Assembly (NCBI RefSeq): GCF_004010195.1
Contig: NC_057757.1
Coordinates: 8,932,980-8,982,502 of the forward strand
Direction of reading: 5' to 3'
DNA: 49,523 nt
Origin: Chiloscyllium plagiosum
Lineage: Eukaryota
The translations under genes were made by a program, and so were the position numbers. This document shows positions 11,439 through 37,223 of the stretch, in pieces; positions within the stretch are counted from its first letter, which is position 1; the number at the start of each line of letters is the position of its first letter. Under the pieces are notes generated by a model. It did not search any database. It was given only the letters and a program-made list of their open reading frames with translations, and was not told where the DNA came from.

Positions 11439-12266
11439 TTACTTGCATTTATTGATCAATTGAATTATTTTTATAACTGGTTATTTCACGGCACAATTTA
11501 ACCGGTATCTGAAAATATTGTGTCCCACCAAATAAATAAGTGACTTTGTACAGCAACTTAAGTCTCGCAACATATATGTGGCTTGTTCAAAGAGGTAAAA
11601 AGCAGCAGAATCCAAGGAATGATCAGCATTAAAGAAAAGTGAAATTTGGCAGATAGAGCGGAGAGTAAAATCACAGAATTCTTTCTGCTCTCTGTCTCAG
11701 GATCATTCTGTATGCTTCTTTGACCCCTCAGTTCATTATACATCTTGATAGCTTCAAATATATGTCTGATAGTCAGCATGTTGATAAGAGAACAAAAGTG
11801 AATGGGAGAAATGGTGTTAAAAAATGTTAAAAATATTTAAAACTTGCCCACCGAGGCCCATTACTATACCTGGACCTGATATAGTATTGCCATGGAACAT
11901 TGTTTACAGGTTGAAATCGAAAGTAGTTGGGAATGTTCTTTACGAAAAATAAAATGCAGATTATTGCTATAACTCTCATCCCAGTTTTCTCCGTACTATA
12001 CTTAGTTTTCATCTGATGAAAATAAATCACGGCAAATTGATCAAAACAAAAAGCAACAGTGAACCAGACAGAACAATCGATTGTCAAGCAGCTCAGGACA
12101 TAGACGATACTACAAACAGGAGTGATGTCCAGGAAACACGGTGGAGAATAATAGTATGGAAATCGATGAAGTATGATATAAAACATAATGGCCACCAGAT
12201 AGTGGGTGCTGCATGTCAAAAGGCCGCACTTGCCCTGAACTTAGATTAGAATCACAACCAGACTGA
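11439..12266 (-). pseudogene. GPR139/GPR142-like class A GPCR pseudogene, copy 1 (main coding exon)
   Basis: Polypyrimidine tract plus TACAG acceptor at 12267-12296, then VSLVVILI*VQGKCGLLTCSTHYLVA (TAA at 12241-43). Further motifs: PVCS...DCSVWFTVAFCFDQF, KNIPNYF, LTIRHI, DPETESRKNSVILLSALS. Stops, frameshifts and deletions. Exon 1 not found. Confidence 0.85.
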
Positions 12267-14809
12267 CTGTAAGTGGGAGAAAGGGGAAAAAAAACAGACT
12301 TGAAGTTACTGATCAAACATTCTGTGCTCGTTAGTAATTGCTGCAGATTGTAGTAATTGCACAAAAATAATTGCTGTTTCAAATTTAAAGAATGAAGATT
12401 AATTAATCTGAACCATGGCATTAAACTTAGTAAATGAATCACTTGCACTTTTAGAAGACACAGGGGAAAAAATAACATAAGCAGTAGATTGCTTACAGAA
12501 ACACAGTCACGTACTCAATGTTTTTTTTGGGGTGGGAGGGTGTTTGGCAGGAGTCAATTTCACCTTTTTTATAAATTACTCAGACTGGATGGAATTTCTC
12601 ATAACATCACAGCATCGATAGGAAAACATCCGGGATCTATGAATGGGAGTCAACTAGCACAGACATTGATTCTTGTATTCGGCTTTGGAACCTCAACATC
12701 TCAGATTGCCTCCAGAATTGTATATTCACACTCTGTAAGTGATAGCAAGGGTGTTGAATCACTCCACACTGTCCAGGATTGGATGTCCTGCAAAATATGG
12801 ACGAAGCAATGATCAGACACTAAGTCCCTCCCACATGTACAGGATTGAACATCCTGACAATGTGACCAATGAAAGTATTCAGTAATGAACTCTACAATTA
12901 TGTCCCAGATTTTATACCAACCTCAATTAGAAGAACGTCAACATTTGATAAGTCCCCCCATCTGTTCAAGACTGTACACCACTGCCTCTACCAAAATAAA
13001 ACCTGAGTCAATGCAGCATTAGTCATTTCGGCATTCCAGTTGAGAAATCAGACAATTTATCTGGGATGAAGCAAAGCTTCCTGCCTGGCGTTAAGGCTCA
13101 CACTCTGAAGTTCCTCTCTTAGGCCCTCTCCTGGTGATTGATAAATGCCCACCCAGATTCGAAAGAATCTGGAGGCAGAAATTCCCATAATTTAACTAAC
13201 GTTTTCCATGCAAATCGCCAGAATTTTACCACATCCTGGCATTAGAGACTGATCAACACTATATTAGTTGATAGCCAAAGACAAAATAATACTCTCAATT
13301 GAATGTGCTTGGGAGGGACTTCACAGAGACGAGAATTGTTTGGAGAATGTCAAAGGATAACAGCAAAGAAGGGCAACATGGGAAATGTTTGACAAAATTG
13401 TTTGAGCCACTGTGTTGCCTGTTGCTACAACAATACAGATCTCAGTGTTTGTCCTGTTAACTCCGCACAGTTTGCTGCTGTGATTCAGATTCTTTAAGAA
13501 GTACAGTGTTTCTTTTTCACAAATGACACAATTCACACGCCAATTTTTCAATCAGATAATTCAATACACATCATAAAATTGGAACCCTGTGCTCAAAACT
13601 CGTTCCAGCGATCTCTCCTCCCAAATTTCGCACCCCCTACATATCCACTGACTTATAAAAAAAGCAAGATAGTCAAAGCCATCCAGGCTGATTCCTCCCT
13701 TACCACTCCATAATGACCTGCTCAACCCACCCAATGCCCCCATTGTATCTGTGTTCCCATGTGGAGTAAACTGCCTGAGCAAGATCCACCAACAAGATAC
13801 CCTGACATGCAGGAATGGGAACACCAGATGTCACTTGCTACATAACCCACCTGACTGATAAAAGCTTTGAACCACAGAAAGACTGGTCTTGCTGAACACT
13901 TTCCGGCACAAGTCGAGGCCAGTGCTCAGCCAACCCGCGTCAATACAACTTCAGTGCAAACATATTATAGAGAAACAGAAACCAGTACAATCTTGCACAT
14001 GACTGATAGTCTCCTAATTGACTATTCACTTTAAACTCAGTAAGTGAGGACACTATTGTACAGCAGTGACATTTGCCTTGCTAAATGGAAATAAAATAAC
14101 TAACAGTTGTAGGTGGACATCGGAATGATTCAATTCAGAAATTTATTCAACTAAAGTTGATCCTTACAATGAATACCAACAACAGCAAGGTTGAATATTT
14201 TTTTCAACCCTCTCCCTTGGACATAATCGTTTTGTTGTTCGTCAAACAGCCTCTCCTTTCCTCCAAATGGCAATCTGTCGGAACTGGACAATTCTCACAG
14301 AATTGGAGCTGTCACAGTTCCAGAGACATTATTTTATTTTGTGAGGTATCTCCACTGGAAAACTGTAATAATCATGTGATATCACTGAGATTTAAGATCA
14401 TGTTTGGATAACTCAAAAACTGGATTAATTTGATTATATTAGATCTCAGTCGCTTATTGCAATTTGTCTTCAAACAGCAACGCTTGTATTATTTCACTAT
14501 CAGTCCCGTCAATATTTAAAGTTCTTTTGAGTCTTTTCAGTGATAACCTTCGTTTTTCTGAGGCTACTCAGTCATTCAACACTTCATTTTGTAGAGTTCC
14601 TTGACAGCTGTTCTCTGGCACATTGTTACACGACTGCTTTCCTTGTTCATTCAGTTTTACAACTCAGTTGGGAAAATCCTTCTGTGAATGAGCACTCTAG
14701 TGCAGAACCTGAAGCTGGTACGGACCACAACAACAGTTGGAACTTAAACTGGGTAATATCTTCTTGAAACACATACAAAGGAAAAAGACTAATCCAGGAA
14801 GTTGATCTC

Positions 14810-15660
14810 AGAATTCTAGAATGGCAGAACCATATAAGAATACAACAGGCCCTTTGGCCCATCATGTTTGTCTTGCAAAGATTGCACTAAATCTACATCA
14901 GTACCACTTCTCAGCACTTGACTCAGAGCCTTCAATGTTATGAGATTTCAAGTGAGCATCCAAGTTTTTTTTAAAGGTTGCGCGACTTCCCATCTCTTTA
15001 ACCTCCCAGCCAGTGCATTGCAGGTCCAGACGGTCCTTTAGGAGAGAAGTGTTTTCCTCATGTCCCCTCCAAACCTCCTGTCTTTCTACTTTAAATTATG
15101 CTTTGCGTGCATTGGCCCTTTGTCTAAGGGTAACAACTGTTTTCTTATACACCCTGTACATGCCCCTTGTTATCTTATACATCCCAATCTCTACTCTAAA
15201 CAAAGCAACTCAACATTATCCACTTTCTTTCTTCACAACTAAATTGCTGCCGCACAAGCGACATTCTGGTGAATCTCCTTTGTACTCGCTCCAAAGCAAT
15301 CACATCGTTGCTGTGGTGTAGTGACCAGAACTGGATATAACACTCCAATGTCCTGTACTGCTCCAACAGGACCTCCCTGCTCTTATAATCAATACCTCGA
15401 CTAGTAAAGACACATGTCCTGTATGCCTTCTCAACTACCCTATTAACCGGCTTAAGGACTCTGTAAACAAGCAGCTCAATTTCTATTCTCCAGGCTTCCT
15501 TTTGTCCCACCCTTGCATTGAGTCCATGCCTTGCCTTGTGAATCCTGCTGAATCACATCATCTCACATTTAATCCATGCTAAACTTCATCTACCACCAAT
15601 CTACTCATTTGACCAATCAGTCTATTTCTATCTGTAACCTGAAACTATTTTCCTCACTGC
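14810..15660 (-). mobile_element. Decayed CR1 LINE 3' portion
   Basis: ORF 15196..15510 contains RGIDYKSREVLLEQYRTLECYIQFWS and ALERVQRRFTRM. The reverse-complemented 3'UTR (acaggccctttggccc) is at about 14845. Confidence 0.85.
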
Positions 15661-15949
15661 CCTGATTAATGTTTTGTCAGCCACAAATGTGGACATTTAC
15701 AACAAATTCAAGAAATGGGAAACCATATAAACGTATAATGTTGCACACACATGAAATCAAAGAGGAAAGCAAGAAGTGCTGCTGAAATTTAGCAAATCTC
15801 TCAGCACCTGTAGAGAGAAATACAGAGTTAACCTTTTGCGTTCAATATAACTCTTGAAAACAGTGCTGAGGAGAAGTTATGTAGGACAGAAACGTTCATT
15901 GACTTTCTCTCTTCACATACAGCAGGCCTACTGAGTTTCTTCAGAACTT

Positions 15950-16200
15950 TCTGCTCGACAGCAAAGTTGCCAGTTTGATTGGCACCATACTTATGAACAG
16001 TCAGTCCATCCTCCACCAATATTCAGTGGCAGCATTGAGTATCACTGACAATATGCACTGCAGAAACTCACCAATTCTCCTTAGACAGCTCCAAATCAAT
16101 GCCCACTACCATCCTAAAGACTAAGGCGATAAATGCATGAGACCAACTATACTTGCATGTTCCCTTCTCAGCCACTCACTATCCTGACTTGGATATATAT
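15950..16200 (+). mobile_element. LINE 3' fragment, same family as 3580-3985
   Basis: KVASLIGT...SVAA...NMHCRNSP, and the shared 3' motif cactcactatcctgacttggatatatat. Confidence 0.55.
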
Positions 16201-16204
16201 TCTT

Positions 16205-16540
16205 ACGGTAAGATTGCTATAGTCCCATGAACCATTGGCTCCACTCTCATTAGTGAAACTCAACTGGTCGTGAGTTTAACCTGAGGACCGTTGTATGTCG
16301 GGATGGGTTGAGGTTGAGAATGTAGAACTTTCCTGGCCATCTCAGCCAGAGTAGGAATTGAACTTGCGCTGTTGGTATCACTCTCCATCACAAACCACCA
16401 ATGCAAACACCATTGCTGCAGGGGGTCAGTTAGTACAGTTGGCTGGACGGTTTGTCTGCAATGAGCAGATGTGAGGGGATCCTTATGTTAAACTCACCAC
16501 CAGGTCACTCTCTCTCTATGAGAGAACAGCTCTCTGGAAT
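16205..16540. mobile_element. Two decayed tRNA-derived SINE copies, head-to-head (minus about 16205-16400, plus about 16420-16540)
   Basis: A-box-like head gtcagttagtacagttggctggacgg at about 16425 and a minus-strand B-box-like ggaattgaac at about 16353. The body ttaaactcaccac...ctctctcta(a)tgag is shared with the copy at about 25525-25745. Confidence 0.55.
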
Positions 16541-17999
16541 GAAGGTGATTCCTTCAGTGTCCCTTTTTCACAATCTTGGAAAATCCCTCTCTCCCCTTCC
16601 CTTCACACCACAGACAAATTGTTCCTACACCATCAGGACACCAATGGCACAAAGAAGCAACTACCACCACATTCTCAACAGTAATAAATAGTGACCCAGT
16701 CAACAATGGCCAAGTACCCTAAATTAATTAATGAAACAAGTCCGCTAAAAGAAAGAACACCAAGATTCTGGCTGCCAGAAAATTCAAACACTTTTACAAT
16801 AAAATTGTTTGGTGTGTCACCATTTGGCAGATTTTAGGTGGATGGTGTGGATGGGAAGGGGCGTGACCATTGTTGCAAGAGAATGCAGTAATTTGATGAA
16901 TGCTCAGTTAAACCACATTTTAACCATGATAACACGCATTGAACAGAGAACGGCGCTGGCTGAATCTTCTGTAAAAACGTTTCTGAACTGTGAATATTTT
17001 CAAATAGCACTATCAGGAAGTGGTTACTCCATGTAGTAGGTCTTAAACTCCCTGCAGTGAAAAACAGGCATAACTTCTTATAATCCTAAATAATAGTCTG
17101 ATAGTTGGTTAGTCCATGTGACTTAGACGTAAACATACCACTCGTGATCCAAGATTGGGCAGGGTTTATGACCGAGGGGTATAAAATATAGTGCTCGTGC
17201 CCACATTTCAGTAAATTGGTTACCATCATTGTAACGAGATTGTTGTGCAACCAGGATAGAATCTGTAATGGTATTTGAAGCGTGTAGTTTTCCCTGGTGT
17301 AGCTGTGGGATAAGACAAGTCCCAGAAGAGCACAGTAACTTCTAGAGTGAAAAGTTTCGCATTCAAACCAACGACGATTGATTAGTGTAAGGATATGACA
17401 TTAAAACATCTGATCTGAAGGAGATAGGGAATGAGACTTGGGTCAAGAGCAGGCTCAGAATGGTCTATCTGAGACGAGTCCCCATCATCTGTCCTGTGGG
17501 GATAGACTCGCTGTCTGCACTTCAAAACCTCACTTTCCAGTTGTAAATCTTGTCTTACTGAATTATCTAATGTCATTGCTAACAAATTATTTCAATCTGA
17601 TTTATGCAAAGCAAACCATACCTGATTGTATTTGTTAAATGACTGCAAATAGTGGTAACTGTTTAGTGAACCTATTTGACTCCCTTGAGGCTTGATGTTA
17701 GAATTGGAACTTGAATTAGATTTTATTATCATGTGTACTCAAGCGTTAGAATACCTGAGCTCAGTGAAAAGTGCATACAGTCGCCATTCTCCACCACCAT
17801 CTTGGTTCAGAAACCAAGATGTCTGCAAAAATATAGATTCAGTTCCCTTATTTGGCCATACACAGGCAGAATCTGCCACATCCTGAAGAAATCTTTCGAA
17901 AATGGGTTAACCACTATCCAGCTTGTGGAAGAGCTTTACTCTTGAATTCTTAAGAATGTTGCTCTTCCTGGTGATTCATTGTTCAGGCCCAATGTATTG

Positions 18000-20200
18000 G
18001 AAGATTGAAGGTGGACGCCCTGCATTCAGAAAGGGAATCAAAAGCAGGAATATCAGGCCAGTTAGCTGAACACATCACAGGGAAATTGTTGAAAGGTATT
18101 ATTTAACCAGACACACGGGACACGTTGACCAGTTCAAGTTAACCTGCAGAGATGACTTTGTTCGTGATTTAATGGCATTTTTGAGAAAGTAAAATGAAAT
18201 AAAGAGAGTCCAGAGTCAACATATTCCTGTTAGGGTGAAAGGTATATTCCTGTTAGGTGCAGGGAATGTTGGATGACGACAGAAATTGAGGTTTTGATGA
18301 AGAAAAAGAATGAAGCATATGGCATGTATAGACAACAAAGATCGAGTGATTCCTTAGAAGACTATAAAAGCAGTAATAGTATACTTCCAAGGGAAATCAT
18401 GAGGGCAAAATGAGGGCAAATAACTTTGGCAAATCAGGTTAAGGAGAATCCAAAGGGATTATATAAATACAATAAGGAGAAAAGGGTAACTAGGGAGAGC
18501 ATAGGGCCGCTTAAAGATCAGCAAGACCACAAATGTGAGGTACTGCAACAGACTGGGGAGATACTGAAAAAATGTTTTGCATCAGTGTTTACTGTGGAGA
18601 AGGGCATGGAAGAAATCGAATGCAGTGAGGTGGCAAGGTGGCTCAGTGAGTAGCACTGCTGTATCATAGCGTCAGGGACCCGGGTTCGATTCCAACCTCA
18701 AGTGACTGTCTGTGTGGAGTTAGCACATTCTCTCCGTGTCTACGCAGTTTTCCTTCCAATGCACAAGTTTTCTCCCAAAGTCAAGATATGTGCAGGTTAA
18801 ATGAATTGGCTGTGCTCAATTGCCCGTAATGTGCAGGTTACGTGCATTAGTCATGGGTAAATCTAACATAAGAGATTGAAGGAGAGGTCTGCATGGTTAA
18901 TCTTCGGAGGGTCAGGGTGGACTTGTTGGACTGAAGGGTCTGTTTCCATACTGCAGCGATTCTCTTAAATAGATGGGTGAGTTTTAAAATATGTCCATAT
19001 TAGAGAGGAGGAGGTGCTGGATGTCTTGAAACACTTAAAAATGCAAAATCCCAAAGACCTGGTCAGGTGCACCTAGAACTCTGTGAGAAGCGAGGGAAGT
19101 GATTGCTGGGCTCCTTGCTGAGATATTTGGATTATTGATTATCGCAGGTGAGGTGCTGAAAGACTGGAACTTTTGTCAAATGTGATTTCACTATGTAAGA
19201 AAGGTCAGGGAACTGTATACCTGACATCGGTGGTGGGCAAATTGTTGGAATGAATACTGAGAAACAGGACTTCCATGTAATTGGATAGACAAGGACTGAT
19301 TAGGGATAGTCAGCATGGTCTTGTGAGTGGGCAATCACGTCTCACTAAATTGATTGAGTTTTTTGAAGAAGTCACCAAGAGGATTAATGAGGAGAGAGCG
19401 GTGGACACGATCTCTAAGGACTTCAGTAAGGTATTTGACAAGGTTCCTCATGATAGACTGGTTAGCAAATTAGATCTCATGGAATACAGGGAGGAAGAAG
19501 ACAAATGGTGGTGGTGGAGGGTTGTCTTTCAGACTGGAGACCTGTGACCAATAGAGTGCCAAAGGATCGATATTGTGTCCACTGTTTTTTTGTCACTTAT
19601 ATAAATGAGTTGGATGTGAACATAAGAGATACTTAGTAAGACTGTAGATGATACCAAAATTGGTATGTCGTGAACAGTGAAAAGTACAGTTCGGAGTACA
19701 ATGGGATCTTGATCTGATGGGATAATGCACTGAGGAATTGCAGATGGAGATTAATTAGATAAATGTGAGGTGCTGTAGTTTGGACAGGCAAATCGGAGCA
19801 GGACTTATACACTTAATGGTAAAGTGCTGGGGAGTGTTGCTGAACAAAGAGACCTTGCAGTATTGGTTCATAGCTCCTTGAAAGTAGAGTCGCAGGTAAA
19901 TACGACAGTGAAGAAGGCAAACAGTATGTTTTTCTTTATTGGTCAGAGCATTGAGTACAGTAGTTAGGAGGTCATGTTGCAGCTGCACGGGAAAATTAGT
20001 TAGGCCACTTTTGTAATATTGTGTGCATTTCTGGTGTCCTTTTTTCAGAAGGATGTTGTGAAACTTGAAAGGGTTCAGAAAAGATTTAAAAGGATGTTAT
20101 CAGAGTTGGCGGATAAAGGGCACAGATAGGTTAAATAGGCATGGTCTTTTCCCTGGGGTAGGGGAGTCCAGAACTAGAGGGCATAGGTTTAGGGTGAGAG
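18000..20200 (+). mobile_element. Decayed CR1 ORF2 fragments
   Basis: ANQVKENPKGLYKY, QHGLVSGQSRLTKLIEFFEEV, DFSKVFDKVPH, DDTKIG and SRTRGHRFRVRG motifs. Confidence 0.9.
18629..18965 (+). mobile_element. HE1-type V-SINE nested in CR1
   Basis: tRNA-like head ggtggctcagtgagtagc...gggttcgattcc, V-domain-like tgtgtggagttagcacattctc, CR1-like tail ggacttgttggactgaagggtctgtttcc. Confidence 0.85.
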
Positions 20201-21145
20201 GTGCCTTCGTTTGGGATTGTTATTTTGTGTTTGGCTATCAATTTAGACCTGCACTTATTACTCTCTGATGCCAAGCAGTGCTACAAATCTGCTGGTCTCC
20301 ATGCAGAGTGCCAGGTAAACTATGGGGATTTCTAGCCCCGGTGTATGCTGCAAATCTGGGAGAGAGGTCTCCAATCACAAGGAGAAGGCCTCGTTTAGGA
20401 GGTTGGATTCATAAATCTGGACATCAGTCAGGAAGCATTGTTTCATCCCAGATAAAGTATCTGATATAAGTTGCAATTATTAATGCTGTATGGATATTGA
20501 TTTTATTTGGCTGGGACTGCGGTGTGTAGTCGTGGACAGGTGGGGGAGTCCGTGTAAAACTGCAGTGGTATCAAATCTGTGACATGGTGGTTGGAATCAC
20601 TTTTGTATACCTTCCTGGTTCCCATTGTCAGGATGTTCAAACCTATGCACGAGGAAAGGACTCAATGCATGATCATTTGTTCATCCATATTGTGGAGGGC
20701 ATCCATTCCTGGACATTGTAGAAAGAGACTCCAAAGTCTTTTGGGGGAGTCTTGCAATTAGAGTCTCTGTTAGGTTTCTCACATTCTTTGTTTCACTAAT
20801 CCCTGCTGTCTTTGTTTGGATATTATGGTCTTAGGAGGAACTCCAGCCAGTCACAGTAAACTAGAAAGCTGGTGGAATCAACACTTGCCAAACCCCTCCC
20901 TCCAAAAAAACTTGAGTACATGACAGTATTTCTGTGAGCAATCTGCTGCTCATTTCCTTTCTTCTATCTTTCATAAGTGCAAATTATTAATTTAGACAGA
21001 ATTTGTTGCATGGTTCAGCTTCTTTAAATTTCATATAACACAAAATAACAATTATCTTTGTTCCACTACTTACAGTCTGGAATCAGGCACGGAGAATGTT
21101 TGATCAGTAACTTGAAGACTTTTTTTTTCTTTTTCTCTCTCTTAG

Positions 21146-21960
21146 TCTAGTGGTTAATCTTAGCTCAGGGCAAGTGCGGTATTTCTACATGCATCAGTTG
21201 CTATCTGGTTGCCATGGCAGTGTCTTATCTACTGTTCATTTTTCTTATAATATACTTCATTAATTACAGCAATATTATTATTCACGGTGTTTCCTGGACA
21301 TCAGTCCTGTCTGTAGTGTTTGCTATGTCCTGAGCTGCTTGACAATTGATTATTCTGTCTGGTTCACTGTTGTTTTTCATTTGATCGATTTGTTGCTGTG
21401 TGTTTTATTCAAATGAAAACTGAGTATTGCACAGAGAAAACTGCAATGAGGGTTCTCGCAATCAGTGCTTTCTTTTATTTAAAGAACATTCCCAACTACT
21501 TTCGATTCAAATCTAGAAAAATCATCAACAACATTCCATGGTGCTGTTATACCAGCTCCAGTTATTGTAATGACTGCCGGTGGGCTATACTTTCAATATT
21601 TTGAAACCATTTTAACAGCATTTCTTCCATTTTCTTTTATTCTCCTTATCAACATTCTGATATTCGAGACCATTAAGGTGCTAAAGGGATTGGGGGTCCA
21701 GTGAAACACAGATAATGATATAGAGAGCAGAAAGATTTTACTTTTTGCCATATTCACCAGCTCCATATTTCTCTGATTGATGCATATTTAATATTGTTTT
21801 CATATCAGATTTTCACTGAATTCAACTGCTTTTGATCTCGTTGAACAAGTCGCATATGTGCTGCGGATCCTAAGTTGCTGAGTTTCAGAGACCAGTTAAA
21901 GTGATGCAGCGAAATAGCCCGGGTCTAAAAATAATTAAAATGATGAATAACTTCAAGTAG
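21146..21960 (+). pseudogene. GPR139/GPR142-like class A GPCR pseudogene, copy 2 (main coding exon)
   Basis: T-rich acceptor at 21121-21145, then QGKCGISTCISCYLVAMA, FLDISPVCSV, DYSVWFTV, FDRFVAVC, YCTEKTA, KNIPNYF, LPFSFILLINIL, YVLRILSC. Multiple frameshifts and stops. Exon 1 not found. Confidence 0.85.
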
Positions 21961-22747
21961 CTGAGAGCCAAAATTAAGTGCAGCAGATAATGGAACAAGG
22001 AGTCAGTGTGAGGAATGGCGCAAAAGGAAAAGGAGGAGAAGCAATGTGATGACACTTCTGTTTTCATGGTCAAGGAATGATTCCATCTGAGGACCAGGAT
22101 GAAGGAGACTGCAGAAGCAAATCACTGTCAAGTGCTGTTAGCAATGTGCAGCAGCTAGTAGGAAACCGAATAGCAGAAACATAATCTGAAAGAGGAAATA
22201 GACACGGACAATAAATACATTCATCACAATTAATACGTTGTCCGTGAATGAAGCTGATACAGAAATAAATTACCTGGAGGAAAGTATCATTGTTTCTTGC
22301 AGGACAGAAAAGGAAGCAGAAGGGAAGGGTCTTCTCTGCTCTCCCTCACTGAATTCTTTGATCCACGCTTCTGGACTATTATTTTAAAAAATCAGAAGTT
22401 TCCTATTTTAAAAAAGAAATAACATCCTGGAAAGATTCTGTGCTTTTTGATTGCAAATTTATTTTCAACAATAATTAACTTTGTTTTCAATCAGTTTGCT
22501 GATATCATTCAGTTTCTTTATCCATTCCTTTCCACGAACCAGCTGATAATTTCCGAGGGGAATGCAAGGCCAACCACAGGGACTTCTGGACTCCCTCTCT
22601 GCACCTTCCAAGGACCGGGGTCCCTCTCCTAATAAAGATAATCCCAAAATACACCTCTTGAGGTAAGTTATTGTTACATGACCTAATTTCACCTTTAGTG
22701 GGTCACATTCAACTGTTTAATTTCTCATGATAAAGGTATTTTAAGTG

Positions 22748-23059
22748 TTTGGGGATTGTATTATGTTAAAGTGCATTGTGATGATATTAGTGAATATAGC
22801 TGTCTTCCAAGCAGGTGACCTGGGTTTGGGAATTGTATTATGTTAAAGTGCATCGTGATGATATTAGTGAATATAGCTGTCTTCCAAGCAGGTGACCTGG
22901 GTTTGGGGATTGTATTATGTTAAAGTGTACAGTAGTGATATTAGTGAACATAGCTGTCTTCCAAACAGGTGACCTGGGTTTGGGGATTGTATTATGTTAA
23001 AGTGTACAGTAGTGATATTAGTGAACATAGCTGTCTTCCAAGCAGGTGACCTGGGTTTG
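22748..23059 (+). repeat. Tandem array of 4 x 77 bp whose unit contains a decayed tRNA-Gly(TCC)
   Basis: Units start at 22751, 22828, 22905 and 22982. Each holds gtga(at/ac)atagctgtcttccaa(g/a)caggtgacctgggttt, which resembles vertebrate tRNA-Gly-TCC GTGAGCATAGCTGCCTTCCAAGCAGTTGACCCGGGTTCG (recalled sequence). Confidence 0.9.
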
Positions 23060-25524: not shown

Positions 25525-25745
25525 GATTAGCTCGGATGGCTGGACAGTTAGTTCGCAATACAGAATAAAGCCAAATGTAGGGGTGCAATTCCCCCACTGG
25601 CTGGCACTACAATGGAGGATTCTCTTTCTCAACCCCTCCTCTCTCCTGTCACATGGTGAACCCAAGATTAAACCACCATGACTCATCTCTCTCTAATGAG
25701 GAGTTGCCCCATGTTCGAGTAAGACTACGGTGAGTTTACATTTAC
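25525..25745 (+). mobile_element. Decayed tRNA-derived SINE (same family as 16205-16540)
   Basis: Head ttagctcggatggctggacag...gtgcaattccc; body ttaaaccacc...ctctctctaatgag. Confidence 0.55.
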
Positions 25746-25749
25746 TTGC

Positions 25750-26330
25750 ATCTGGAGCACTGTGTACAGGACTGGTCAGTGTACTGACAGAGGGATATTA
25801 ATGTGTGGAAATAGATCAGAGAAGGTTTACTGGTTTCATCCACACTGGAATGATCGGATTGCTTGATGAGGAAAGTGTGCTCACCTAATCAAACTCTTCA
25901 AGACGTTAGCAGGAAAAGACAGGACAGATCAAGGGCGGCACGGTGGCACAGTGGTTAGCACTGCTGCCTCACATGATCGGATTGCTTGATGAGGAAAGTG
26001 TGCTCACCTAATCAAACTCTTCAAGACGTTAGCAGGAAAAGACAGGACAGATCAAGATAAATGATTCCCACTGGCTGGCGATTTGAGAACGAGAGGGAGC
26101 AGAGTATGAGAATGAGGACCCAGAGCGTTCAGAAGCAATGCTATCACAACCACCTGATGAAGGAGCAGCGCTCCAAAAGCTAGTGCTTCCAATTAAACCT
26201 GTTGCACTATAACCCGGTGTTGTGTGATGTTATGAAGCACTTTGACACACAAAGGGTGGGAGTGGTTTGGAACGCTCTTCCCCAAACAGCAGTGGATGAT
26301 GGATCAGTTGTTCAGGTTAAATCTGAGAGA
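25750..26330 (+). mobile_element. Old CR1 3' fragment containing an 84-bp duplication, an HE1 SINE head (25934-25972) and a Penelope terminal piece (about 26145-26230)
   Basis: HLEHCVQDWS, DQRRFT and TQRVGVVWNALPQ motifs. Inserts recognised by similarity to copies elsewhere in the window. Confidence 0.7.
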
Positions 26331-27084
26331 GTGTTTTTTTTTTACAAGTTTTGCTGTAGAACAGGCATCAATTTGGCTTTAGTCTGCTTGCACTGTTTTC
26401 GATGTTGAACTTAACTTCACTTTATTTTTCTTTAAATGATCAGTGATGCCTTTGTCTCCAGTGGATGTGATCAGCAGCAGCGTCAAAACACCCACTGGAG
26501 CCCTTAGGTCTGAATCGGCACATGCAGCCAGTTCCCAAGCCCGCACTCAGTCAGGTTGGACCGTGGCCGAGTTTCCCATCTGCACCAATCGGCAACTCAC
26601 CTTCGCTTGCTCCAGGGCAACTCATCTCAGCCACAACGGACCAAACCCCACACTCCGAAGCTTCATCAATAACTTCAGCTCCGCCCACAGTAGCAGCTTC
26701 TTCCACCAGTCAAAATCCACAAAACGTTCGGAAGAGAACCCTTTGTGGACAATGCAGTATTCTGTCCGCTTTGCCCAGAGAGCAAGCTGAGACGGTTAAC
26801 AGTGAGACTGGAGAACACAAACACAAAAACACAATCACACAATGGTCACCATGGACACCGCTTCACTGTGTGTGATCCGAGATAGTTTACGCTGGGTCTC
26901 CTTGACCATCATAGATGCTAGTCTACTGCCAAGGACGGCACATCTTCACTGGTCCTGGTATCCTCCATCCTGTTGGGAACGACTGTGATGGTTTCATGGA
27001 GGGTGATGAGCCAAGCCTTATAGGCCCCGAGTGTTTGTACCTCTGTCAGCCGCTACATTGCTTCCTAACTCCTCATCCAGCCTT

Positions 27085-27860
27085 TACATCCCTTCCTACC
27101 TCTGTAACCTTCTCCAGCTCCTATATCCCTATCTCTGTAACCTTCTCCAGCTCCTACATCCCTCCCTATCTCTGTAACCTCCTCCAGCCCCTACATCCCT
27201 CCCTATCTCTGTAACCCCCTCAAGCTCCTAATTCCCTCCCTATCTCTGCAACCTCCTCCAGCCTCTACACTCCTCCCTATCTCTGTAACCTCCTCCAGCC
27301 CCTACCCCTGCCCTATCTCAGTAACTTCCTCCAGCCCTTACACCCCTTCCCTATCTCTGTAACTTCCTCCAGCCCCTACACCCTTCCTTATCTCTGTAAC
27401 CTCCTCCGGCCCCTACATCTCTCACTGTCTCTGTAACCTCCTCCAGTCCTACATCTCTTCTTATCTCTGTCACCTCCTTCAACCCCTACACAACTTCCTG
27501 TTCTGTAATGTCCTCCAACCCCAACACCCCCTCCCTATATCTGTAAACTTATCCAGATTTACTCCATTCCCTAACTCTGTAAATGCCTCCAGCACCTACA
27601 CCCCTCCTTATCTCTCGAAACTCCTCTCACCCCTACTCTACTTCCTATCTCTGTAAACTCATCCAACCCCTCCCTATCTCTGTAAATGCTTCCAGCACCT
27701 ACACCTCTCTCTTTCTCTGAAAACTACTGCAGTGCCTACATACCTCCCTATCTCTGTAAGCTCCCCGATCGCTTACACTCCTCCCTACCTCTGTAAACTG
27801 CTCCAGTCCCTACACCCACTCCCTATATCTGAACCCACCTACAGCCCCTACAGCCCTCCC
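27085..27860 (+). repeat. Minisatellite, unit about 37 bp (CCCTCCCTATCTCTGTAACCTCCTCCAGCCCCTACAC), roughly 20 copies
   Basis: tatctctgtaa recurs at 37-bp spacing (for example 27167 and 27204). Copies become more degenerate toward the 3' end. Confidence 0.95.
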
Positions 27861-27864
27861 CAAC

Positions 27865-30347
27865 TCCTTCATTAGGTGGTTGTGGAGCATAACATCGTAA
27901 AACACAGAATTTATAGCAAAAGATTATCGTGTGATGTAACTGAAATTATATATTGGAAAAGACCTGGATTGTTTCTTACGTCTCTCATCTTTTTAAATGA
28001 CCATGTTGGTTTCAGTTCTTTCATATATAAATCCCAGAACCTTTTTAAAGTTACATTCGCAAGTGAACTTTAACAATAGATGCCATGTCAGCTCAGACAA
28101 TGCACTGAAGGTGTGAGGTGCCCTTTGTGAGGCTGTCTGTGCTATAATGTTCGGACCAATTCGATTTCTGAAGAAGGGATTTACAGAATCTGATATGCAT
28201 TTATGCAGTTTTTGAGCGAAATAAAATGTAATTCTGCAAGTACAAATTCACTGGACAAAGTTTGTGCGTGTGTGCATGTGTGTTTTTGGGGGGAGGTGAG
28301 ATGCATGCCCGTGTGAGTGTAAAGGTGTATAAGTCTGTGAGACGTTGCATGGGTGGGTGATTTTGTGGTTGTTTCTGTGTGAGCGTACGAGAAACCCACA
28401 GTTGCACATAAATCTCTTGGCCTCTAACCTGGTGTTGTGTGATTTTTAACTTTGTACACCCCAGTCCAACACCGGCACCTCTAACTCATGACTACTATCG
28501 ACACCACAAATTGTGGAGAAGCTTTAAGTGCAGATGATTTCCAAGATATTAACACAGACATCAAGTTTCTTCAGAAACGAAAGTTTCCAAAAAGGAAAGT
28601 TCCTAAAAGGATTACGGATCACACATCCACTCAAGTTGACCTGCAACACTGATTACGGGGACAGACTTTGTCACCATGCCTCTCACAAACTCCACAATCA
28701 TCTTGAGCACCAACTCTACAGCAGGAGCCACAACCTCGAAATTTGGATGGAGTCCACACTCTCAGAATTCACTCAGCACACAGCAGTACAATTACAGGAC
28801 ATTGCCAAACAAGCATTGAGACAAAACTACACGATGTTCATGCACACCAATATCAGCTGGAGAAACTTGACATCACCACCAGCAGTAGTCAAGCCTGCCC
28901 TGGCACCAAAGTGGAAAACGTTATCATCACAGGGAAGTTGACCGTTAACTTATCGGACTACATCCTTCAACCGGAAGAGATTGAATTTCTCACCAGTGGT
29001 CTCAATTTCTGTCCAACCACCAAAATGGGCCCCGTGAGTCTTGCAGCAGACATGAAGGAGTTCATCAGATGAATGAGACTGCGGGAGTTCTTTCAAGACG
29101 CCAGCAGTGATCGCAAGGAGCCCACTGACGAACTGGAACAGTCATCACAGGGATCCGTAGAATAGCGACCAAAGAAGGAGCCAACTTGGACACCACAGGA
29201 GGGCCACTGCCCTGGGCTTGACATGTATGCTTAAACCATCAGAAAATAGAAAAATGCCAGATTCATAGGCCGCACCCACAAGGTACAGCAAAACATCCCC
29301 TGATCACAACGCAACGCCATCCAGGCTCTCACAACAAATCACAACATTGTCAACAAAACAGCAAATAAAGGAGGAGCCATTGTCATTCAGGATAGAACAG
29401 ATTACTGCAAGGAAGTGTACGGACAACTGAACAATCAGGAACACTACCGGCCAAAGAACACCACCCGTGAACTCAACACATTGACCAGGACTTTGGATCC
29501 AGTCCTTCAGAGTTCCCTACGCACCCACATCCCATGTTCTTCTCATGTACATGACTTCTACTGCCTTCCAAAGACACACAAAGCCAACACACCAGTACGT
29601 CCCATCATATCAGGCAATGGGACCCTGTGTGAGAACCTCCCTGGCTATGTCAAAGGCATCTTGAAACCCATTGTACAGGGGACCGCAAGCTTCTGTTGTG
29701 ACACTACAGATTTCTTACAGACACTCAGCACCCACTGACCAGTTGATCCGGGAACATTCCTCATCACAATGTGTGTTTCAGCACTCTACACCAGCATCCG
29801 CGCCCCCCTCAAATGATGGCAAGGCAGCAACTGCCTCAGTACTCAACACCAACAACTGCAATTTCCGAGCACCATCCTACAACTCATTTACTTTATCATC
29901 AACCTCAACATGCTCACCTTTGACAACTAGTTCTTCATGCAAACTCACACCAAACCGCTATGGGGACCACATTTGCACTCCAGTATGCCAATATTTTCAT
30001 GCACAGGTTCGAACAAGACTTCCAACTAACACTATAAACCAGGTACATGGACAGTATTTTCTTCCTCTGGACACGTGGCGTGGAGCTTTTGCAACAATTA
30101 CACCATAATATTAACGAGTTTCATTCTACTATCAAACTCGGGATGGGCTATTCTTTAGTATCTGTCTCATTCTTGGACACATGCATCTCCATCAAGGATG
30201 GGCACCTCAGCACCTCACTCTACCGGAAACCTACAAAAATCCCCACGATGCTACACGTCTCCAGCTTACCATATTAAAACTGCTATTGCCTCTGGGCAAG
30301 TCCTACGAATACAATGGATCTGTTCAGATGAGGAGGAACATGATGGG
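27865..30347 (+). mobile_element. Penelope-like retroelement: inverted terminal-repeat segment (about 27865-28400) followed by a disrupted ORF with RT
   Basis: VNLSDYILQPEEIEFLTSGLNFCPT, YCLPKTHK, PVRPIISGNGTLCE, VSFLDTCISI and STSLYRKPT are Penelope RT motifs. 27865-27920 matches 46125-46180, and 28425-28480 is the reverse complement of 46025-46080. Runs into a gap. Confidence 0.9.
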
Positions 30348-30847
30348 NNNNNNNNNNNNNNNNNNNNNNNNNNNNNNNNNNNNNNNNNNNNNNNNNNNNN
30401 NNNNNNNNNNNNNNNNNNNNNNNNNNNNNNNNNNNNNNNNNNNNNNNNNNNNNNNNNNNNNNNNNNNNNNNNNNNNNNNNNNNNNNNNNNNNNNNNNNNN
30501 NNNNNNNNNNNNNNNNNNNNNNNNNNNNNNNNNNNNNNNNNNNNNNNNNNNNNNNNNNNNNNNNNNNNNNNNNNNNNNNNNNNNNNNNNNNNNNNNNNNN
30601 NNNNNNNNNNNNNNNNNNNNNNNNNNNNNNNNNNNNNNNNNNNNNNNNNNNNNNNNNNNNNNNNNNNNNNNNNNNNNNNNNNNNNNNNNNNNNNNNNNNN
30701 NNNNNNNNNNNNNNNNNNNNNNNNNNNNNNNNNNNNNNNNNNNNNNNNNNNNNNNNNNNNNNNNNNNNNNNNNNNNNNNNNNNNNNNNNNNNNNNNNNNN
30801 NNNNNNNNNNNNNNNNNNNNNNNNNNNNNNNNNNNNNNNNNNNNNNN

Positions 30848-31215: not shown

Positions 31216-31920
31216 TTTGATGCAAATACCTCACTTGCTCTACCCACCAACTTTGTTTGGATCAACAATATCCGAATGGTCACCGGCCACTTCATTTGTT
31301 TAGCCACGTTCTCAAAGAATTGAAAAACACTTCTACATCTGTCTCATAGAAAGAACACAGTGCTTGGACATATTTAAACAGATACCAATCTGGCCTTTGG
31401 CTACAATGGGCTTGCTCATGATCACTATCCCACTCACGCAACCTCCCTTCTACCTCCACTCTCACCCTTTTAAGTTGACTTGCCCCTCTAATTGCTAACT
31501 TCTGATTTGAAATTCTCTCCCGCTTTCTCTTTTCTCTTCTTTTAATTGCAATTCACACTGTTGCATTTCCTTTTCATTTACAAGCTGCATTTGAATTCTA
31601 GCCATTTCCAAAGATTTCAGTGGCATTCCCAGCAATGTTAAATGCCGCGTTATTGTTGCAATTACTTCCCCTTTTCTCACAGACCCTGTCAACCCCAACG
31701 CCAACTTGTCTGCAAACCCCAACTCCAGCTTGTCTATAAACCCCAACTCCAACTTGTCTACAACCCCAACTCCAGCTTGTCTATAAACCCCAACTCCAAC
31801 TTGTCTACAAACCCCAACTCCAGCTTGTTTGCTTTGCTCAATTTTTTGCAAATCCCCCAAAAGTCACTTCGTCCAATACCAAAATAGTTTTAAACATCCA
31901 AAACAAATGACACTAACACC
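31216..31920 (-). mobile_element. Gypsy (Gmr1-like) gag 5' fragment with an internal 24-bp tandem expansion
   Basis: Minus strand: GDLQK...DKLELG...SVRKGEVIATI, a coiled-coil-like segment, then LFKYVQAL...DVEVFF / FENVAKQMKWP...LLIQTKLVGRASEVFAS. About 6 copies of accccaactcca(g/a)cttgtcta at 31690-31830. Confidence 0.75.
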
Positions 31921-31989
31921 TACCACTTGCTGCGTCAAGTCCAACAATCCTAAACCCAACTTAGAATGATACATTGTGATCCGGACATT

Positions 31990-32654: not shown

Positions 32655-32694
32655 GGTGGGGTTGAACGGGGATCCTTGGTAAATGTGCTGCATT

Positions 32695-33125
32695 AAGTCA
32701 TGGAGTCATAGAGTCTACTCCACAGTAAAAAGGCCCTTTGGCCAACACATCTGCGCCAGTCAGAAATGACCACCTATCTATTCTAATCCCATTTTCCAGC
32801 ACTTGTCCCATAGCCTTGTGCTTATCAAAATAACTCTTCAATGTTGTGAGTGTGTCTATCTCTACAGGCAGGAAGTTCCAGATTCCCACCACCATCTGGG
32901 TGAAAAGGTTTTCTCTCTCACATCTCCTCTAAACATGCTGCCCTTTAAGTTAAATTGACACCGCACCCCCTCCCCTCCAGGCATTGCTCTCTCCATCAAG
33001 AGGAAATGTTCCTTCCTGTCTATGCTGTCTGTGCTCCTGATGATTGGAAATGTCTCATCGATGTCTCTTCTCAATCACCTCTGCTCCTGTGGAAGAGCAC
33101 CCCAGTCTGTTCAATCGCTTTTCAT
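32695..33125 (-). mobile_element. Decayed CR1 3' end
   Basis: FRGDVREK, VVGIWNFLP, and a tail reading gactctatgactccatgact on the minus strand. Confidence 0.8.
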
Positions 33126-33404
33126 ACCTCCGGGAAAGGTCTATGAACACAACCAAAACCTGATGGCTATGTCCTGCCACTTCCCTCCTGAACACCTCCA
33201 TTGAATCTGTATCCATCATAATCTGAGGCAGTGCACCCAGAGGCAAACAATTAGCTGCAGGATTGACCTTTGCTCATGTCTCCATTGCTTCTTTCACCAA
33301 ATGTTTAAAATCGATGTAGATGTGTTTGTCAATCTGTGGGAACATTATTTGTTCATTACCAACTGTGTCTGGAACACCCATGTTTTGTGTACCCATACGA
33401 CACC

Positions 33405-34282
33405 AGGCAACACCAAAATGGGAGGGGTAGTGGGTAGCGAAGAAGGTCACCTCAGAGTACAATGGTCTCTTGATCAGATGGACCAATGGGCTGAGCAGCA
33501 ACATATGGAGGTTAATTTTGATAAATGCGCGGTTCTGCATTTTGGAAAAATAAATCTTAGCAGCACTTACATATTTATTGGTAAGGTCTTAGGGAGTGTT
33601 GCTGAGCAAAGAGACCTTGGAATGCAGGTTCATACCTCTTTTAATGTAGAGTCACAAGTAGATAGGATAGTGTAGAAGGTGTTTGGTATGCTTTCCTTGA
33701 TTTGTAAGAATATTGAGTATGAGAGTTGGGAGGTCATGTTGCAGCTGTACAGGACATTGATTCGGCCACTGGTGGAATATTGCGTGCAATTCTGATCTTG
33801 TGAAACTTGGAAACATTCAGAAAAGATTTAAAAGGATAGTGCCTGGGTTGAATGATTTGAGGTACATGGAGAGGCTGAACACGCAGGGGCTGTTTTCCTT
33901 GGAGTGTCAGAAGCTGAGGATGACCTTATACAGTTCATAAAATCATGAGGGGCATGGATAGGATAAATAGACAGAGTAGTCCAAAACTAGAGGACATAGG
34001 TTTAGGATGAGAATGGAAAGATATAAAAGCGAGCGAAGGGGCATCTGTTTCACGCAGAGGATGGTACGTGTATGGAATGAGCTGCCAGAGGAAGTTGTGG
34101 AGCTGGTGCAGTTGTAACATTTAAAAAGCATTTGGATGGGTATATGAATAGGAAGGGTTTGGAAGGATATGGGCCGGGTGTTGGCAAATGGTATTAGATT
34201 GGTTTGGGATATCTGGTTGGCATGGACGATTTGGACCAAAGGGTCTGTTTCTGTGTCGTACATCTCTATGACCCTATGACTC
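33405..34282 (+). mobile_element. 5'-truncated CR1 LINE
   Basis: NTKMGGVV...FDKCAVLHFGK...RDLGMQVH; 3'UTR ending ctctatgaccctatgact. Confidence 0.9.
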
Positions 34283-35171
34283 ATATTAATCCCACAACTA
34301 TTTTTAAAAAAATTATGTTTGAAGAACAATCTCCCTCTCTCGATTCTATTCACGCAACTGAAGTTCCTTAGGTTTTACCCACATGAATGAATCTGCTCTT
34401 CACTCTCTTTCTTTGTGACTCTCTGACCAAACTGAAGCAATTGATAGTTGCTACTACCTCAGAGATTTCAAATTCTCCAGGTCTCTGCTCACCTCTGAAC
34501 GGGAGGTTTTCAGTCTTTTCAAATGGGAAAGGACCTGATGCAAAGTTTCAAGGCAAGTGGGGTGTATTCCATTCCTTTTCTATGTTTTGCCTTGCAGATG
34601 TTAGACAGGCTTTGGGGAGCCAAGAGGTGAGTTACTGAGTGCAGTATTCCAAGCTTCTGACTTGCTTTAGGCAGTATGTGTCCACCTACAGCACATGGAC
34701 TGTAGGGATGAAGAAAGCAGCCCATCCCCCACCTTCTGGAGAATAACTAGGGACTGGAAATAAATGCTGCTGCACCCAGAGACATCTTCAGCCCACCAGG
34801 TGCTAAAAAAAGCCAGAGCATTTATGTGGCTAGTTTAGTTAAGTTTCTAGTCAATGGCTCCAGGACGTTGCTGGTGGGGAAATCAGTGACTCTCCCCTCA
34901 GTGAACGTCTCCATTGAATTATGCCAACACTAGATCACTCAATGGACTGACAATTAAACTCTCCCATTATAATTTCTAATTTAGGTTTGTTCTTACTACC
35001 CACTGTTGATTTGTTTCAGAAGATATCTTTTTTAGAATTGTCAAACACGGACTATTCTAATAATATGCAGATTTGGACGAATGATTGTAATTGGGGGAGA
35101 AGGGATAGGGTTAACTGGTCAGGACATGTCCTGCTCATGCACACATTCCCCTTACAGTTTTTGATTTCATT

Positions 35172-35483
35172 TGGGCGGCATGGTGGCACAGTGGTTAGCA
35201 CTGCTGCCTCACAGCGCCTGAGACCCGCGTTCATTTCCCGCCTCAGGCGACTGATTGTGTGGAGTTTGCACGTTCTCCCCGTGTCTGCGTGGGTTTCCTC
35301 CGGGTGCTCCGGTTTCCTCCCACCGTCCAAAGATGTGCAGGTCAGGTTAATTGGCCGTGCAAAATTGCCCGTAGTCTTAGGTAAGGGGTGAATGTAGGGG
35401 CATGGGTGGGTTGCGCTTCAGCGGGTCGGTGTGGACTTGTTGGGCCGAAGGGCCTGTTTTCACGCTGTAATCTAATCTAATCT
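35172..35483 (+). mobile_element. HE1-type V-SINE, well preserved
   Basis: gggcggcatggtggcacagtggttagcactgctgcctcacag head, V-domain ggagtttgcacgttctccccgtgtctgcgtgggtttcctccgggtgctccggtttcctccc, (TAATC)n tail. Confidence 0.95.
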
Positions 35484-35651
35484 ACTTTTGTTTGTAGTTG
35501 TAATTAGGCTCATTAACTTGGGTATTGATTTTCTGATCTGATGAATTCTGCCTGCTACAAATGATGGAAGTTTTGTCAATTTCTCAAAAAGAGAACTGGC
35601 TAATCCCTGACAAGAATCATCAAAATAACTGTAATTTACAAAAGGGAAATT

Positions 35652-37223
35652 ATGTCTCTTAGTTTTATGGTCAAGCTGAAGATTCTGTGGGTGATCACTG
35701 ATATACAGAGGATTTACTACCCGGTCTTAGCTGCTGTTGGTGTCCCGGGTAAGTTACACGTGAAGGATGATGTCTTAAGATGTGGAGTGTGTTATCTTAA
35801 TTATTGTGACACTTTTCTTTGATTTGTCTTGCGTTTCAGCAATGACCAGCCATCAATAACAATTCCGTTTTTCAATAAGAATTCATTAACAACATACCAT
35901 TTGTGAGGCGAAGAAACAGTCCCTGCTTTTCCTGCAATTAACCCCTTTCCTTCAGAACATTACTGCTGAATGCAGGTCTTAATCGCTCAGTTGGCATGAG
36001 AGAGCAGATCATCAAGCAAGTGCTATGCCCTCTGACTGCGGGAGCTGATTGTTCACGTTGTTTCTGTAACTCCTTCTCAGGGATGATCAAAGCAGATGCT
36101 GTTGTAACAGCTATTGTAACAGTTTCTCATTGTCCCATTCATCTCAGGAAACAGTCTATTCGAGGGTCATCACTGCTTCTGTACGGGTGTGAAAGGTATT
36201 CTTTTTGATGCATGAGCAGCTGTGAAAGTGGTGAATTTTACATTGGTACACATGGCTTTCTGATTTTTGTTTGACTGCACAGTTATCATTGCCTTTGACT
36301 GCAGTTTTTCCATTCTCTGACAGGCACCACATTTAGAATCCATCCTGATTAGAATGTTAATAACAAATTTGTGAAAAAGTTTCAGTTTGATGGAAGAACA
36401 TGGGATACCCATTAAGAATGAGTTTCAATATTGCATTTAAATAAAGCAATAAAAAGCATGTCTTCATTATACCTGAGCAATAAATGAATTTATTTATCTT
36501 CTTCTTTGAAGTTAATGTGATTGCAATAACGATCCTGATTCGGGGTAAATGTGGCCTTTCCAAATGTGTCACTCATTACCTGGTGGCTATGGCAACGGCA
36601 GATCTACTGGTCATTATCTTCGATCTGATACTACGTCAAATTCCCATCACATATCGGGAGGAGTTTCTTTTCCTACATGATGTCACCTTGTGCAACATCC
36701 ACGCTGTTCTGCTTTATGCAGCCACAGACTGCTCTGTCTGGTTCACGGTCACGTTCACCTTTGATCGGTTTGTAGCCATATGTTGCCAAAAGCTGAGAAG
36801 TAAACATTGCACCAAGAAAACAGCGGGTGTGGTTTTAGGAACAGTGACTGTGCTGAGTGGTTTGAAGAACATTTTATATTAGCCAACAGAGCTCGCAGGA
36901 GACTCCGGGCTCAGAAAACTGGGGACAGTGTCAGTGACCCAGAGATGGGGAGTCGGAGGAACTCCATGATTATGTTATTTATTATATCTAGTAATTTCAT
37001 CACGTTATGGGTGGTGTTCATTGCTTATTCCATCTTGAAACGATTTGATTACTTGGGATATCCAGTTGCTTTGCCAACATTTGTAAGTGAGATTGGCTTC
37101 ATGCTTCAGCTCCTGAGTTGCTGCACAAACACCTTTATTTATGCAGTTATCCAGAGGAAATTCAGATCAGAGATGAAAAATGGAATAATATATCCCTTCA
37201 CAATGTTTATCAAAATAATTTGA
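35652..37223 (+). pseudogene. Two-exon GPR139/GPR142-like class A GPCR gene, copy 3 (exon 1 35652-35748, exon 2 36512-37223), frameshifted by an internal deletion at about 36870
   Basis: Exon 1 MSLSFMVKLKILWVITDIQRIYYPVLAAVGVP followed by a G|GTAAGT donor, spliced in phase 1 to AG|TTAAT. This gives VNVIAITILIRGKCGLSKCVTHYLVAMATADLL...FTFDRFVAICC...LKNI. The other frame continues ANRARRRLR...DPEMGSRR...LQLLSCCTNTFIYAV...stop at 37223. ECL2 and TM5 are missing. Confidence 0.9.

Follow-up and report, generated by a model that had tools for sequence, protein, structure and literature searches.

The locus

The window analyzed here, a stretch of 49,523 nucleotides from the bamboo shark Chiloscyllium plagiosum (contig NC_057757.1, positions 8,932,980 to 8,982,502 of the forward strand), contains three paralogous sequences related to G-protein-coupled receptors (GPCRs) of class A. 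They are termed here copies 1, 2 and 3. An initial annotation described them as disrupted, GPR139/142-like genes that might belong to a receptor expansion in cartilaginous fishes. In a six-frame motif scan, the motif GKCG is found at 12234 (-), 21169 (+) and 36544 (+), in each case followed by YLVA and SVWFT, and the three paralogues are therefore present where they had been placed. A chance motif match was considered as an account of the three copies and rejected. Searches of the window by tblastn with 138 relatives revealed no further exon-2 copy; the remaining matches are scattered (at most three per kb) and stem from a few long gene models, in regions of these that are not receptor sequence.

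The receptor-related features are as follows (TM, transmembrane helix; HMM, hidden Markov model; P numbers denote individual protein models).

10617..13298 (-): duplicated block around copy 1, comprising part of the intron, exon 2 and the 3' flank; inverted relative to the copy 2 block
11439..12266 (-): copy 1 exon 2, from the end of TM1 to the stop; old pseudogene with stops at 12243, 11829 and 11483, frameshifts near 11786 and 11640, and DRF changed to DQF
12268-12267 (-): copy 1 phase-1 splice acceptor
17902..17970 (+): decayed exon 1 of the receptor family, with ATG, stops and a phase-1 GT donor; matches exon 1 of P0193 at 12 of 20 residues
20211..22571 (+): duplicated block that contains copy 2 and pairs with the copy 1 block
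21146..21960 (+): copy 2 exon 2; old pseudogene with stops at 21702, 21774 and 21789, and frameshifts near 21272, 21373, 21590, 21880 and 21903
35652..35748 (+): copy 3 exon 1, from ATG into TM1 (...GVP-G), intact, with GTAAGT donor; HMM E 5e-12
35749..36511 (+): 763-nt phase-1 intron of copy 3, which interrupts TM1, donor at 35749 and acceptor at 36511
36512..37223 (+): copy 3 exon 2, with a 181-nt frameshifting deletion at 36875/36876 and a stop at 36880-36882

Frameshift-aware alignment to the nearest intact proteins confirms that all three copies are disrupted. Copy 1 is identical to the Stegostoma protein P0121 at 181 of 282 residues (64%), and carries three stops, two frameshifts and several deletions. 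Copy 2 matches the same protein at 161 of 265 residues (61%), with three stops and five frameshifts. Copy 3 is identical to P0005 at 200 of 243 residues (82%) and has a single lesion, in which 62 codons are replaced by 5 bases, such that the end of TM4, extracellular loop 2 (ECL2) and TM5 are gone. The signatures GKCG.S.C...YLVA and SVWFTV.F.FDRF, thought to be shared by all three, are whole only in copy 3. Copy 1 has the altered forms GKCGLL and FDQF, with loss of R3.50, and copy 2 has a frameshift inside the second signature. Similarly, a phase-1 intron in TM1 had been assigned to copies 1 and 3. Both of its ends are seen for copy 3, whereas for copy 1 the acceptor alone is present, and no exon 1 was detected by HMM or by position-specific scoring matrix. 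The corresponding acceptor of copy 2 has been deleted. The locus thus consists of three ordinary pseudogenes and one remnant.

Duplication and decay

The blocks around copies 1 and 2 form an inverted pair of ~2.4-2.7 kb, with segments that are 66-68% identical by self-BLAST. Identity is 75% in exon 2 and 67-74% in the flanks. The two copies differ at 58/252 (23.0%), 60/253 (23.7%) and 73/252 (29.0%) of first, second and third codon positions, respectively. These near-equal values suggest that most of the divergence accumulated without selection on the protein. In a tree of 53 rows, copies 1 and 2 are sisters (100/93) and one intact Stegostoma protein adjoins the pair (100/100); the end branch of copy 1 measures 0.6, versus 0.14 for P0121. 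The duplication that produced copies 1 and 2 as an inverted pair is old, and their decay has been almost neutral.

The decayed exon 1 at 17902-17970 scores 49 with its GT donor, a value reached by 0 of 30 shuffled windows with GT (maximum 39); when the GT condition is dropped, 2 of 30 shuffled windows score higher. The subfamily of P0193, which this exon resembles, differs from that of copies 1 and 2. No homology was found between the exon-1 region at 17.9 kb and the DNA upstream of copy 1. The sequence is probably a fourth remnant, and may represent either exon 1 of copy 2 or the leftover of a fourth gene. A TATA-like sequence is located at 17178-17195 (+), ~720 bp upstream of it.

Copy 3 had been assigned to a subfamily other than that of copies 1 and 2, and the trees agree. 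Its end branch (0.12) is barely above that of its intact neighbor P0005 (0.09), which suggests that it died recently. We consider it improbable that copy 3 is alive and that the deletion reflects faulty assembly or a polymorphic allele. Copy 3 has no other lesion, its branch shows no lengthening and the window contains four N gaps, all of which would be compatible with a living gene. In addition, the join at 36875/36876 is crossed by no listed piece from sequencing runs of related organisms, which contain at best a 0.40 share of the window's words, and contigs of two related organisms diverge from the window at 36874-36875, and their loose ends proceed from there as intact genes do. However, the breakpoint has only ~2 nt of microhomology, which is presumably too short for the usual kind of assembly collapse.

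One N gap spans 30348-30847. The Stegostoma proteins closest to copy 3 (P0005) and to copies 1 and 2 (P0121) are encoded on different contigs (15.9 versus 48.4 Mb). The neighborhood of copy 3 with copies 1 and 2 may be lineage specific or may reflect a scaffolding join.

Receptor class

The Pfam profile 7tm_1 assigns these sequences to class A: the copy 3 fragment scores 40.8 bits and intact relatives score 68-73 bits, with a cut-off of 30.5. A structural model of P0005 (mean predicted local distance difference test score 74.6) has seven long helices and helix 8. A fold search with this model places class A GPCRs at the top in a tie (Z 21-22), and GPR139 does not stand out, at rank 7 in a tie with peptide receptors. 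The residues N1.50, D2.50, D/E-R3.50, the C3.25-ECL2 cysteine pair, W6.48 and N7.49-Y7.53 are near-invariant (116 rows kept of 138; 69 diverse rows), and P6.50 and P7.50 are mostly missing.

Membership in the Srw family (PF10324) was rejected, as copy 1 scores 19.8 bits, below the cut-off of 22.2, and the intact members scanned have no match. Among P0003, P0005, P0009, P0080, P0121 and P0172, no match to the family-specific chemoreceptor profiles of Pfam (OR, TAAR, V1R, V2R, T2R) was found; these proteins match only 7tm_1, plus weak unrelated profiles. The nearest invertebrate clusters are FMRFamide-receptor-like or Srw-like (language-model features, 0.96-0.97).

A large family in cartilaginous fishes

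When the TM1-TM4 region of copy 3 was used as a query, 1557 of 1685 candidates passed E<=1e-3 (clusters at 90% identity). The best matches are Stegostoma proteins of 84-87% identity. Among the best 120 of the 1557 clusters, to which our species tally is confined, 119 have shark names by a count made by hand: 56 are from Heterodontus, 30 from Heptranchias, 18 from Pristiophorus, 7 from Stegostoma, 3 from Mustelus, 3 from Scyliorhinus and 2 from Carcharodon, numbers that isoforms and faulty models inflate. With copy 1 as query, 18 of 38 candidates were retained, and all of these are from sharks. A profile built from 18 full-length family members (A2) was compared with a library at 50% identity and yielded 133 matches at 1e-30, 789 at 1e-10 and 4363 at 1e-3. 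Nineteen of 20 representatives that were looked up are from sharks, skates, rays or Callorhinchus.

Near-identical tandem copies are also present; for example, one Rhinoraja cluster has eight members, seven of which are assigned to a contig of equal length. The copy-3 subfamily retains 75% identity between Stegostoma and Heptranchias. The 1557 clusters, the members in sharks, rays and chimaera, and the trees together bear out the proposal of a large cartilaginous-fish expansion with birth-and-death turnover. On these sequences, the family is real, very large and apparently unpublished, and represents a radiation, specific to this lineage, of an orphan receptor type already known.

Many public models of family members are chimeric (P0001, P0002, P0004, P0091, P0100 and others), in that they fuse two receptors or use retroelement sequence as exon 1. 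Others are misnamed as CCR3-like, opsin-like, vasopressin V2-like or capa receptor-like. As a result, the true size of the family is hidden.

A lineage separate from GPR139

GPR139 is the best sequence match among solved structures, which explains the automatic name "GPR139" given to these genes. The label "GPR139/142-like" used in the initial annotation is merely that of the nearest human or solved-structure relative, as profile scores and the tree indicate a separate lineage. With profile A2, human GPR139 scores 63.9 bits, versus 184 for a salamander protein, 177 for coelacanth, 162 and 114 for teleosts, 126 and 112 for amphioxus and 106 for a mollusc (all values were obtained with the profile of the same alignment). 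The family is also multi-copy, unlike a single-copy gene, with 56 Heterodontus clusters in the best 120 alone, some of which may be isoforms or faulty models. The earlier reading that these are not 1:1 orthologues of a known receptor is supported. Orthology to GPR139 or GPR142 was rejected on the basis of the bit-score order and the cysteine pattern.

A query with the salamander protein recovered 25 out of 1675 candidates, of which 20 are amphibian clusters, each of a separate species, 1 is from sturgeon and 4 are from elasmobranchs. No amniote or teleost match was found among the 1675 candidates, but the word index limits the reach of this search and the absence is weak. In the 53-row tree, whose rows were picked by hand and do not include true GPR139 or GPR142, the 36 chondrichthyan-type rows are monophyletic (96/89), with the amphibian/sturgeon gene as their sister group (99/99). 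The tree input was reduced by a coverage filter that 75 of 150 representatives failed, and 15 more multi-stretch models were taken out by hand. Coelacanth and teleost rows fall just outside the joint clade, in an unsettled fork with amphioxus. One receptor lineage, distinct from GPR139, is retained as a single cluster in each amphibian species and in sturgeon, and comprises many subfamilies in cartilaginous fishes.

The amphibian clade (P0252/P0299) is a conserved, apparently single-copy orphan of frogs, salamanders, a caecilian and sturgeon that is mislabelled GPR139 and has a GPR139-like invariant pocket. This orthologue offers a tractable ancestral receptor for deorphanization in Xenopus.

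A variable pocket and a constant signalling face

Across 69 family rows, 15 pocket positions have a mean entropy of 2.62 bits, versus 1.61 bits over the whole set of TM positions (none of 10000 random sets reached the pocket value), where the pocket positions are taken from generic class A numbering and some had been inspected beforehand. The pocket also exceeds the extracellular half of the TM region (2.18 bits; P=0.010), and the cytoplasmic face has an entropy of 0.38 bits. R3.50 and N5.58 are each present in 69 of 69 rows, a DPE motif is invariant and the cysteine pair of C3.25 and ECL2 is near-invariant. The G-protein face is conserved in both the shark family and the amphibian orthologues. 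In 20 amphibian rows, however, the pocket is the least variable part (0.02 bits, below the TM mean of 0.40), with F3.33, W6.48, P6.50, K6.51 and N7x38 in 20 of 20 rows. This pocket is close to the GPR139 site, with Gln replacing His. The combination of a variable pocket and a constant G-protein face in the shark family fits a diversified ligand-detecting repertoire.

Proposed function and competing explanations

The three loci are probably defunct representatives of a multigene family of chondrichthyans, made up of two-exon class A GPCRs and subject to birth-and-death evolution. Copies arise by segmental duplication in which flanking DNA is included, as for copies 1 and 2, and die by deletion or frameshift, as copy 3 apparently did recently. 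Residues facing the G protein and the TM3-ECL2 cysteine pair stay constant, and positions in the ligand pocket vary. The intact paralogues could constitute a repertoire whose members share their signalling output and differ in their tuning to many related small ligands. These ligands would most likely be aromatic amino acids or short peptides, probably of exogenous origin. The proposed ligand types are suggested by the amphibian sister gene, which keeps F3.33, W6.48, P6.50, a basic residue at 6.51 and N7x38, as in the Trp/Phe pocket of GPR139.

It is likely that the family functions as a diversified ligand-detection repertoire, in whatever tissue. More tentatively, the best single guess for its site of use may be a chemosensory epithelium that faces outward, in the nose, taste buds or skin. 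A chemosensory role is a plausible hypothesis given the diversification of the pocket. Such use is favored by the small number of canonical receptors in cartilaginous fishes, with a reported mean of 43.8 complete olfactory receptor genes (range 20-62) (PMC10869828), and by the FMRFamide-receptor and Srw relatives of the wider clade. It is possible, though we would not presume it, that the family is the largest chemoreceptor repertoire of cartilaginous fishes, exceeding ORs, TAARs, V1Rs and V2Rs combined, and that it derives from a GPR210-type receptor for aromatic amino acids or peptides that is single-copy or lost in bony vertebrates. If so, it would be an additional, unrecognized family of vertebrate chemoreceptors, in parallel with the co-option of srw genes in nematodes.

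Several observations weigh against this interpretation. The catshark olfactory epithelium is reported to be dominated by V2R/OlfC receptors, in microvillous neurons (PMC10116579). The top 50 olfactory-specific genes of the catshark include no GPCR in the available text of another study, although V2Rs were missed as well (PMC11979771). Reads of paralogues numbered 47 in one single-cell run, of unlabelled tissue, from a related organism (~2% of the run was scanned); none is at least 95% alike and all are partly aligned, and they are at most a hint of transcription. The entropy rows are automatic gene models, some of which may be pseudogenes. A quick tree of 90 rows gives a support of only 75 for the chondrichthyan clade, versus 96 for the joint clade with the amphibian/sturgeon gene. 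All three local copies are dead, and intact Stegostoma and Heptranchias members match 7tm_1 only, not Srw. Finally, the deep pocket is conserved in the copy-3-like subfamily (L3.32 in 103 of 104 rows, D3.37 in 103, H5x43 in 101 and Q7.42 in 101), in which ECL2, ECL3 and the N-terminus vary. Diversification therefore appears to occur between subfamilies and in loops, and not everywhere.

A close rival, although less likely than not, is immune or irritant surveillance rather than smell or taste. The receptors would be carried by leukocytes, skin or somatosensory neurons and would sense peptides that come from microbes, parasites or damage, like mammalian formyl-peptide receptors (FPRs) and MRGPRs. 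Clusters of FPR and MRGPR genes also evolve by birth and death, and the pattern of a variable pocket with a constant G-protein face is equally expected. Moreover, V2Rs apparently account for the catshark nose (PMC10116579), and cartilaginous fishes are reported to be without MAS1-related receptors (PMC8455134). However, the closest solved sequence is GPR139, not an FPR or MRGPR.

Largely neutral amplification is also improbable. A small two-exon gene in repeat-rich regions might be duplicated often, with a few conserved copies performing an endogenous job while the rest drift. The death of 3 of 3 local copies, the close-to-neutral differences between copies 1 and 2 at codon positions 1, 2 and 3, and the richness of the region in repeats are as this explanation predicts. 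Yet many full-length models from sharks, rays and chimaera keep the invariant motifs and the low entropy of the cytoplasmic face, the copy-3 subfamily is 75% identical between Stegostoma and Heptranchias, and variation is concentrated in the pocket.

Most doubtful of all is the idea that these are receptors for an expanded family of endogenous or reproductive peptides (neuropeptide, seminal or pheromonal), like the relatives that bind MIP, sex peptide or FMRFamide: we know of no matching peptide-family expansion, and the pocket is usually invariant in receptors for endogenous ligands, as in the amphibian sister gene, even though protein-atlas neighbors of the family are FMRFamide-receptor-like and GPR139/142 cluster with such peptide receptors (PMC8514136).

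Repeats in the window

The region is rich in repeats. A SINE-like (short interspersed element) repeat is located at 11089-11273 and 40775-40995, and a sequence resembling it, at ~37320-37400, lies directly 3' of copy 3. The repeat is present in the 3' flank of copy 1 and missing from that of copy 2, which suggests that it is younger than the duplication. Just past the copy 2 block is a 77-bp tandem repeat (22747-23059; 4.1 copies, 95% matches). Other tandem arrays are a 37-bp unit repeated 21.7 times (27071-27860), a 123-bp doublet (25865-26118) and a 24-bp array (31691-31828). With TRF at score 30, no 26-bp satellite array was detected in 12300-21100 or 33000-36500. Decayed copies of LINE-type (long interspersed element) retroelements are found at 43757-45330, 5088-9250, 18191-20090 and 33444-34281, and a match to RVT_1 at 44315-44887 (E 2.6e-6) is below the cut-off. 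The frames at 8197-8628 and 28707-30108 have no Pfam match and resemble what we take to be Penelope-type elements.

Novelty and significance

No paper on a GPR139-like expansion in chondrichthyans was found among the matches listed in our literature search, which left subscription literature mostly outside its scope. The name "GPR210" occurs in a relevant sense only in PMC6504862 within the literature searched. The string "GPR" has 0 matches in the text of PMC11979771, PMC8455134, PMC10620051 and PMC13113109. Receptor names, the only items searched for, have 0 matches in the supplements of PMC7677710, PMC12361510, PMC10529500 and PMC6504862. The supplement of PMC8455134 has one GPR142 orthogroup label, which is not tied to the shark family. 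New here are the sister gene in amphibians and sturgeon, the connection to GPR210 and the contrasting variability of the pocket.

Cartilaginous fishes have been described as GPCR-poor (PMC8455134). A family that numbers dozens of members or more in each genome, and that automatic annotation has concealed as "GPR139", alters this picture whatever its tissue. Cartilaginous fishes have ~44 olfactory receptor genes (PMC10869828) despite large olfactory organs, and how sharks sense chemicals with few receptors becomes a directly testable question.

Comparison with known receptor systems

The shark family shares W6.48 and N5.58 with GPR139. The agonist site of GPR139 has been reported to comprise F109, H187, W241 and N271 (PMC5430874). 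When mapped through an alignment to GPR139, these residues correspond in the copy-3-like set to Y/F in 102 of 104 rows, H in 101, W in 104 and N in 0, and are mostly different in the copy-1-like set. The copy-3 subfamily resembles that site in its aromatic residue at 3.33 and its His at 5x43 (PMC5430874). The GPR139 chain lacks Cys at 3.25 and has P6.50, R6.51 and N7x38. In contrast, the shark family has C3.25 and the ECL2 Cys, P6.50 in only 7 and N7x38 in only 3 of 69 rows, and a DPE motif before TM6. It is multi-copy, unlike the single-copy GPR139 and GPR142.

The OR, TAAR, V1R, V2R and T2R families resemble the shark family at the level of genome dynamics, with clustered copies, pseudogenes, a variable pocket and a constant signalling face. 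However, the shark family belongs to none of them and has a coding region of two exons.

Among invertebrates, the nearest clusters belong to the protostome clade of FMRFamide, MIP and sex-peptide receptors and Srw proteins. GPR139/142 have been grouped with MIP/SPR, FMRFa, proctolin and myosuppressin receptors (PMC8514136), and the wider clade has FMRFamide-receptor and Srw relatives (PMC8514136, PMC12208981). As srw is a chemoreceptor family of nematodes (PMC3963977), this clade provides a precedent for chemosensory co-option. The shark family has a median identity of only ~23% to the invertebrate rows and is an independent vertebrate radiation.

Among the closest known systems is GPR210. Rinne et al. 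2019 described GPR210A, GPR210B and a third subtype as orphans beside GPR139 and GPR142; they occur in coelacanth, gar and certain fishes, and humans have no orthologue (PMC6504862). Coelacanth and teleost rows are likewise among the nearest outside relatives of the shark family. However, GPR210 was named from Ensembl trees without sharks (the word "shark" occurs 0 times in the available text of PMC6504862, and no expansion is described there), and the sister of the shark family is the amphibian/sturgeon gene. The shark family is probably a chondrichthyan radiation of one GPR210-type lineage.

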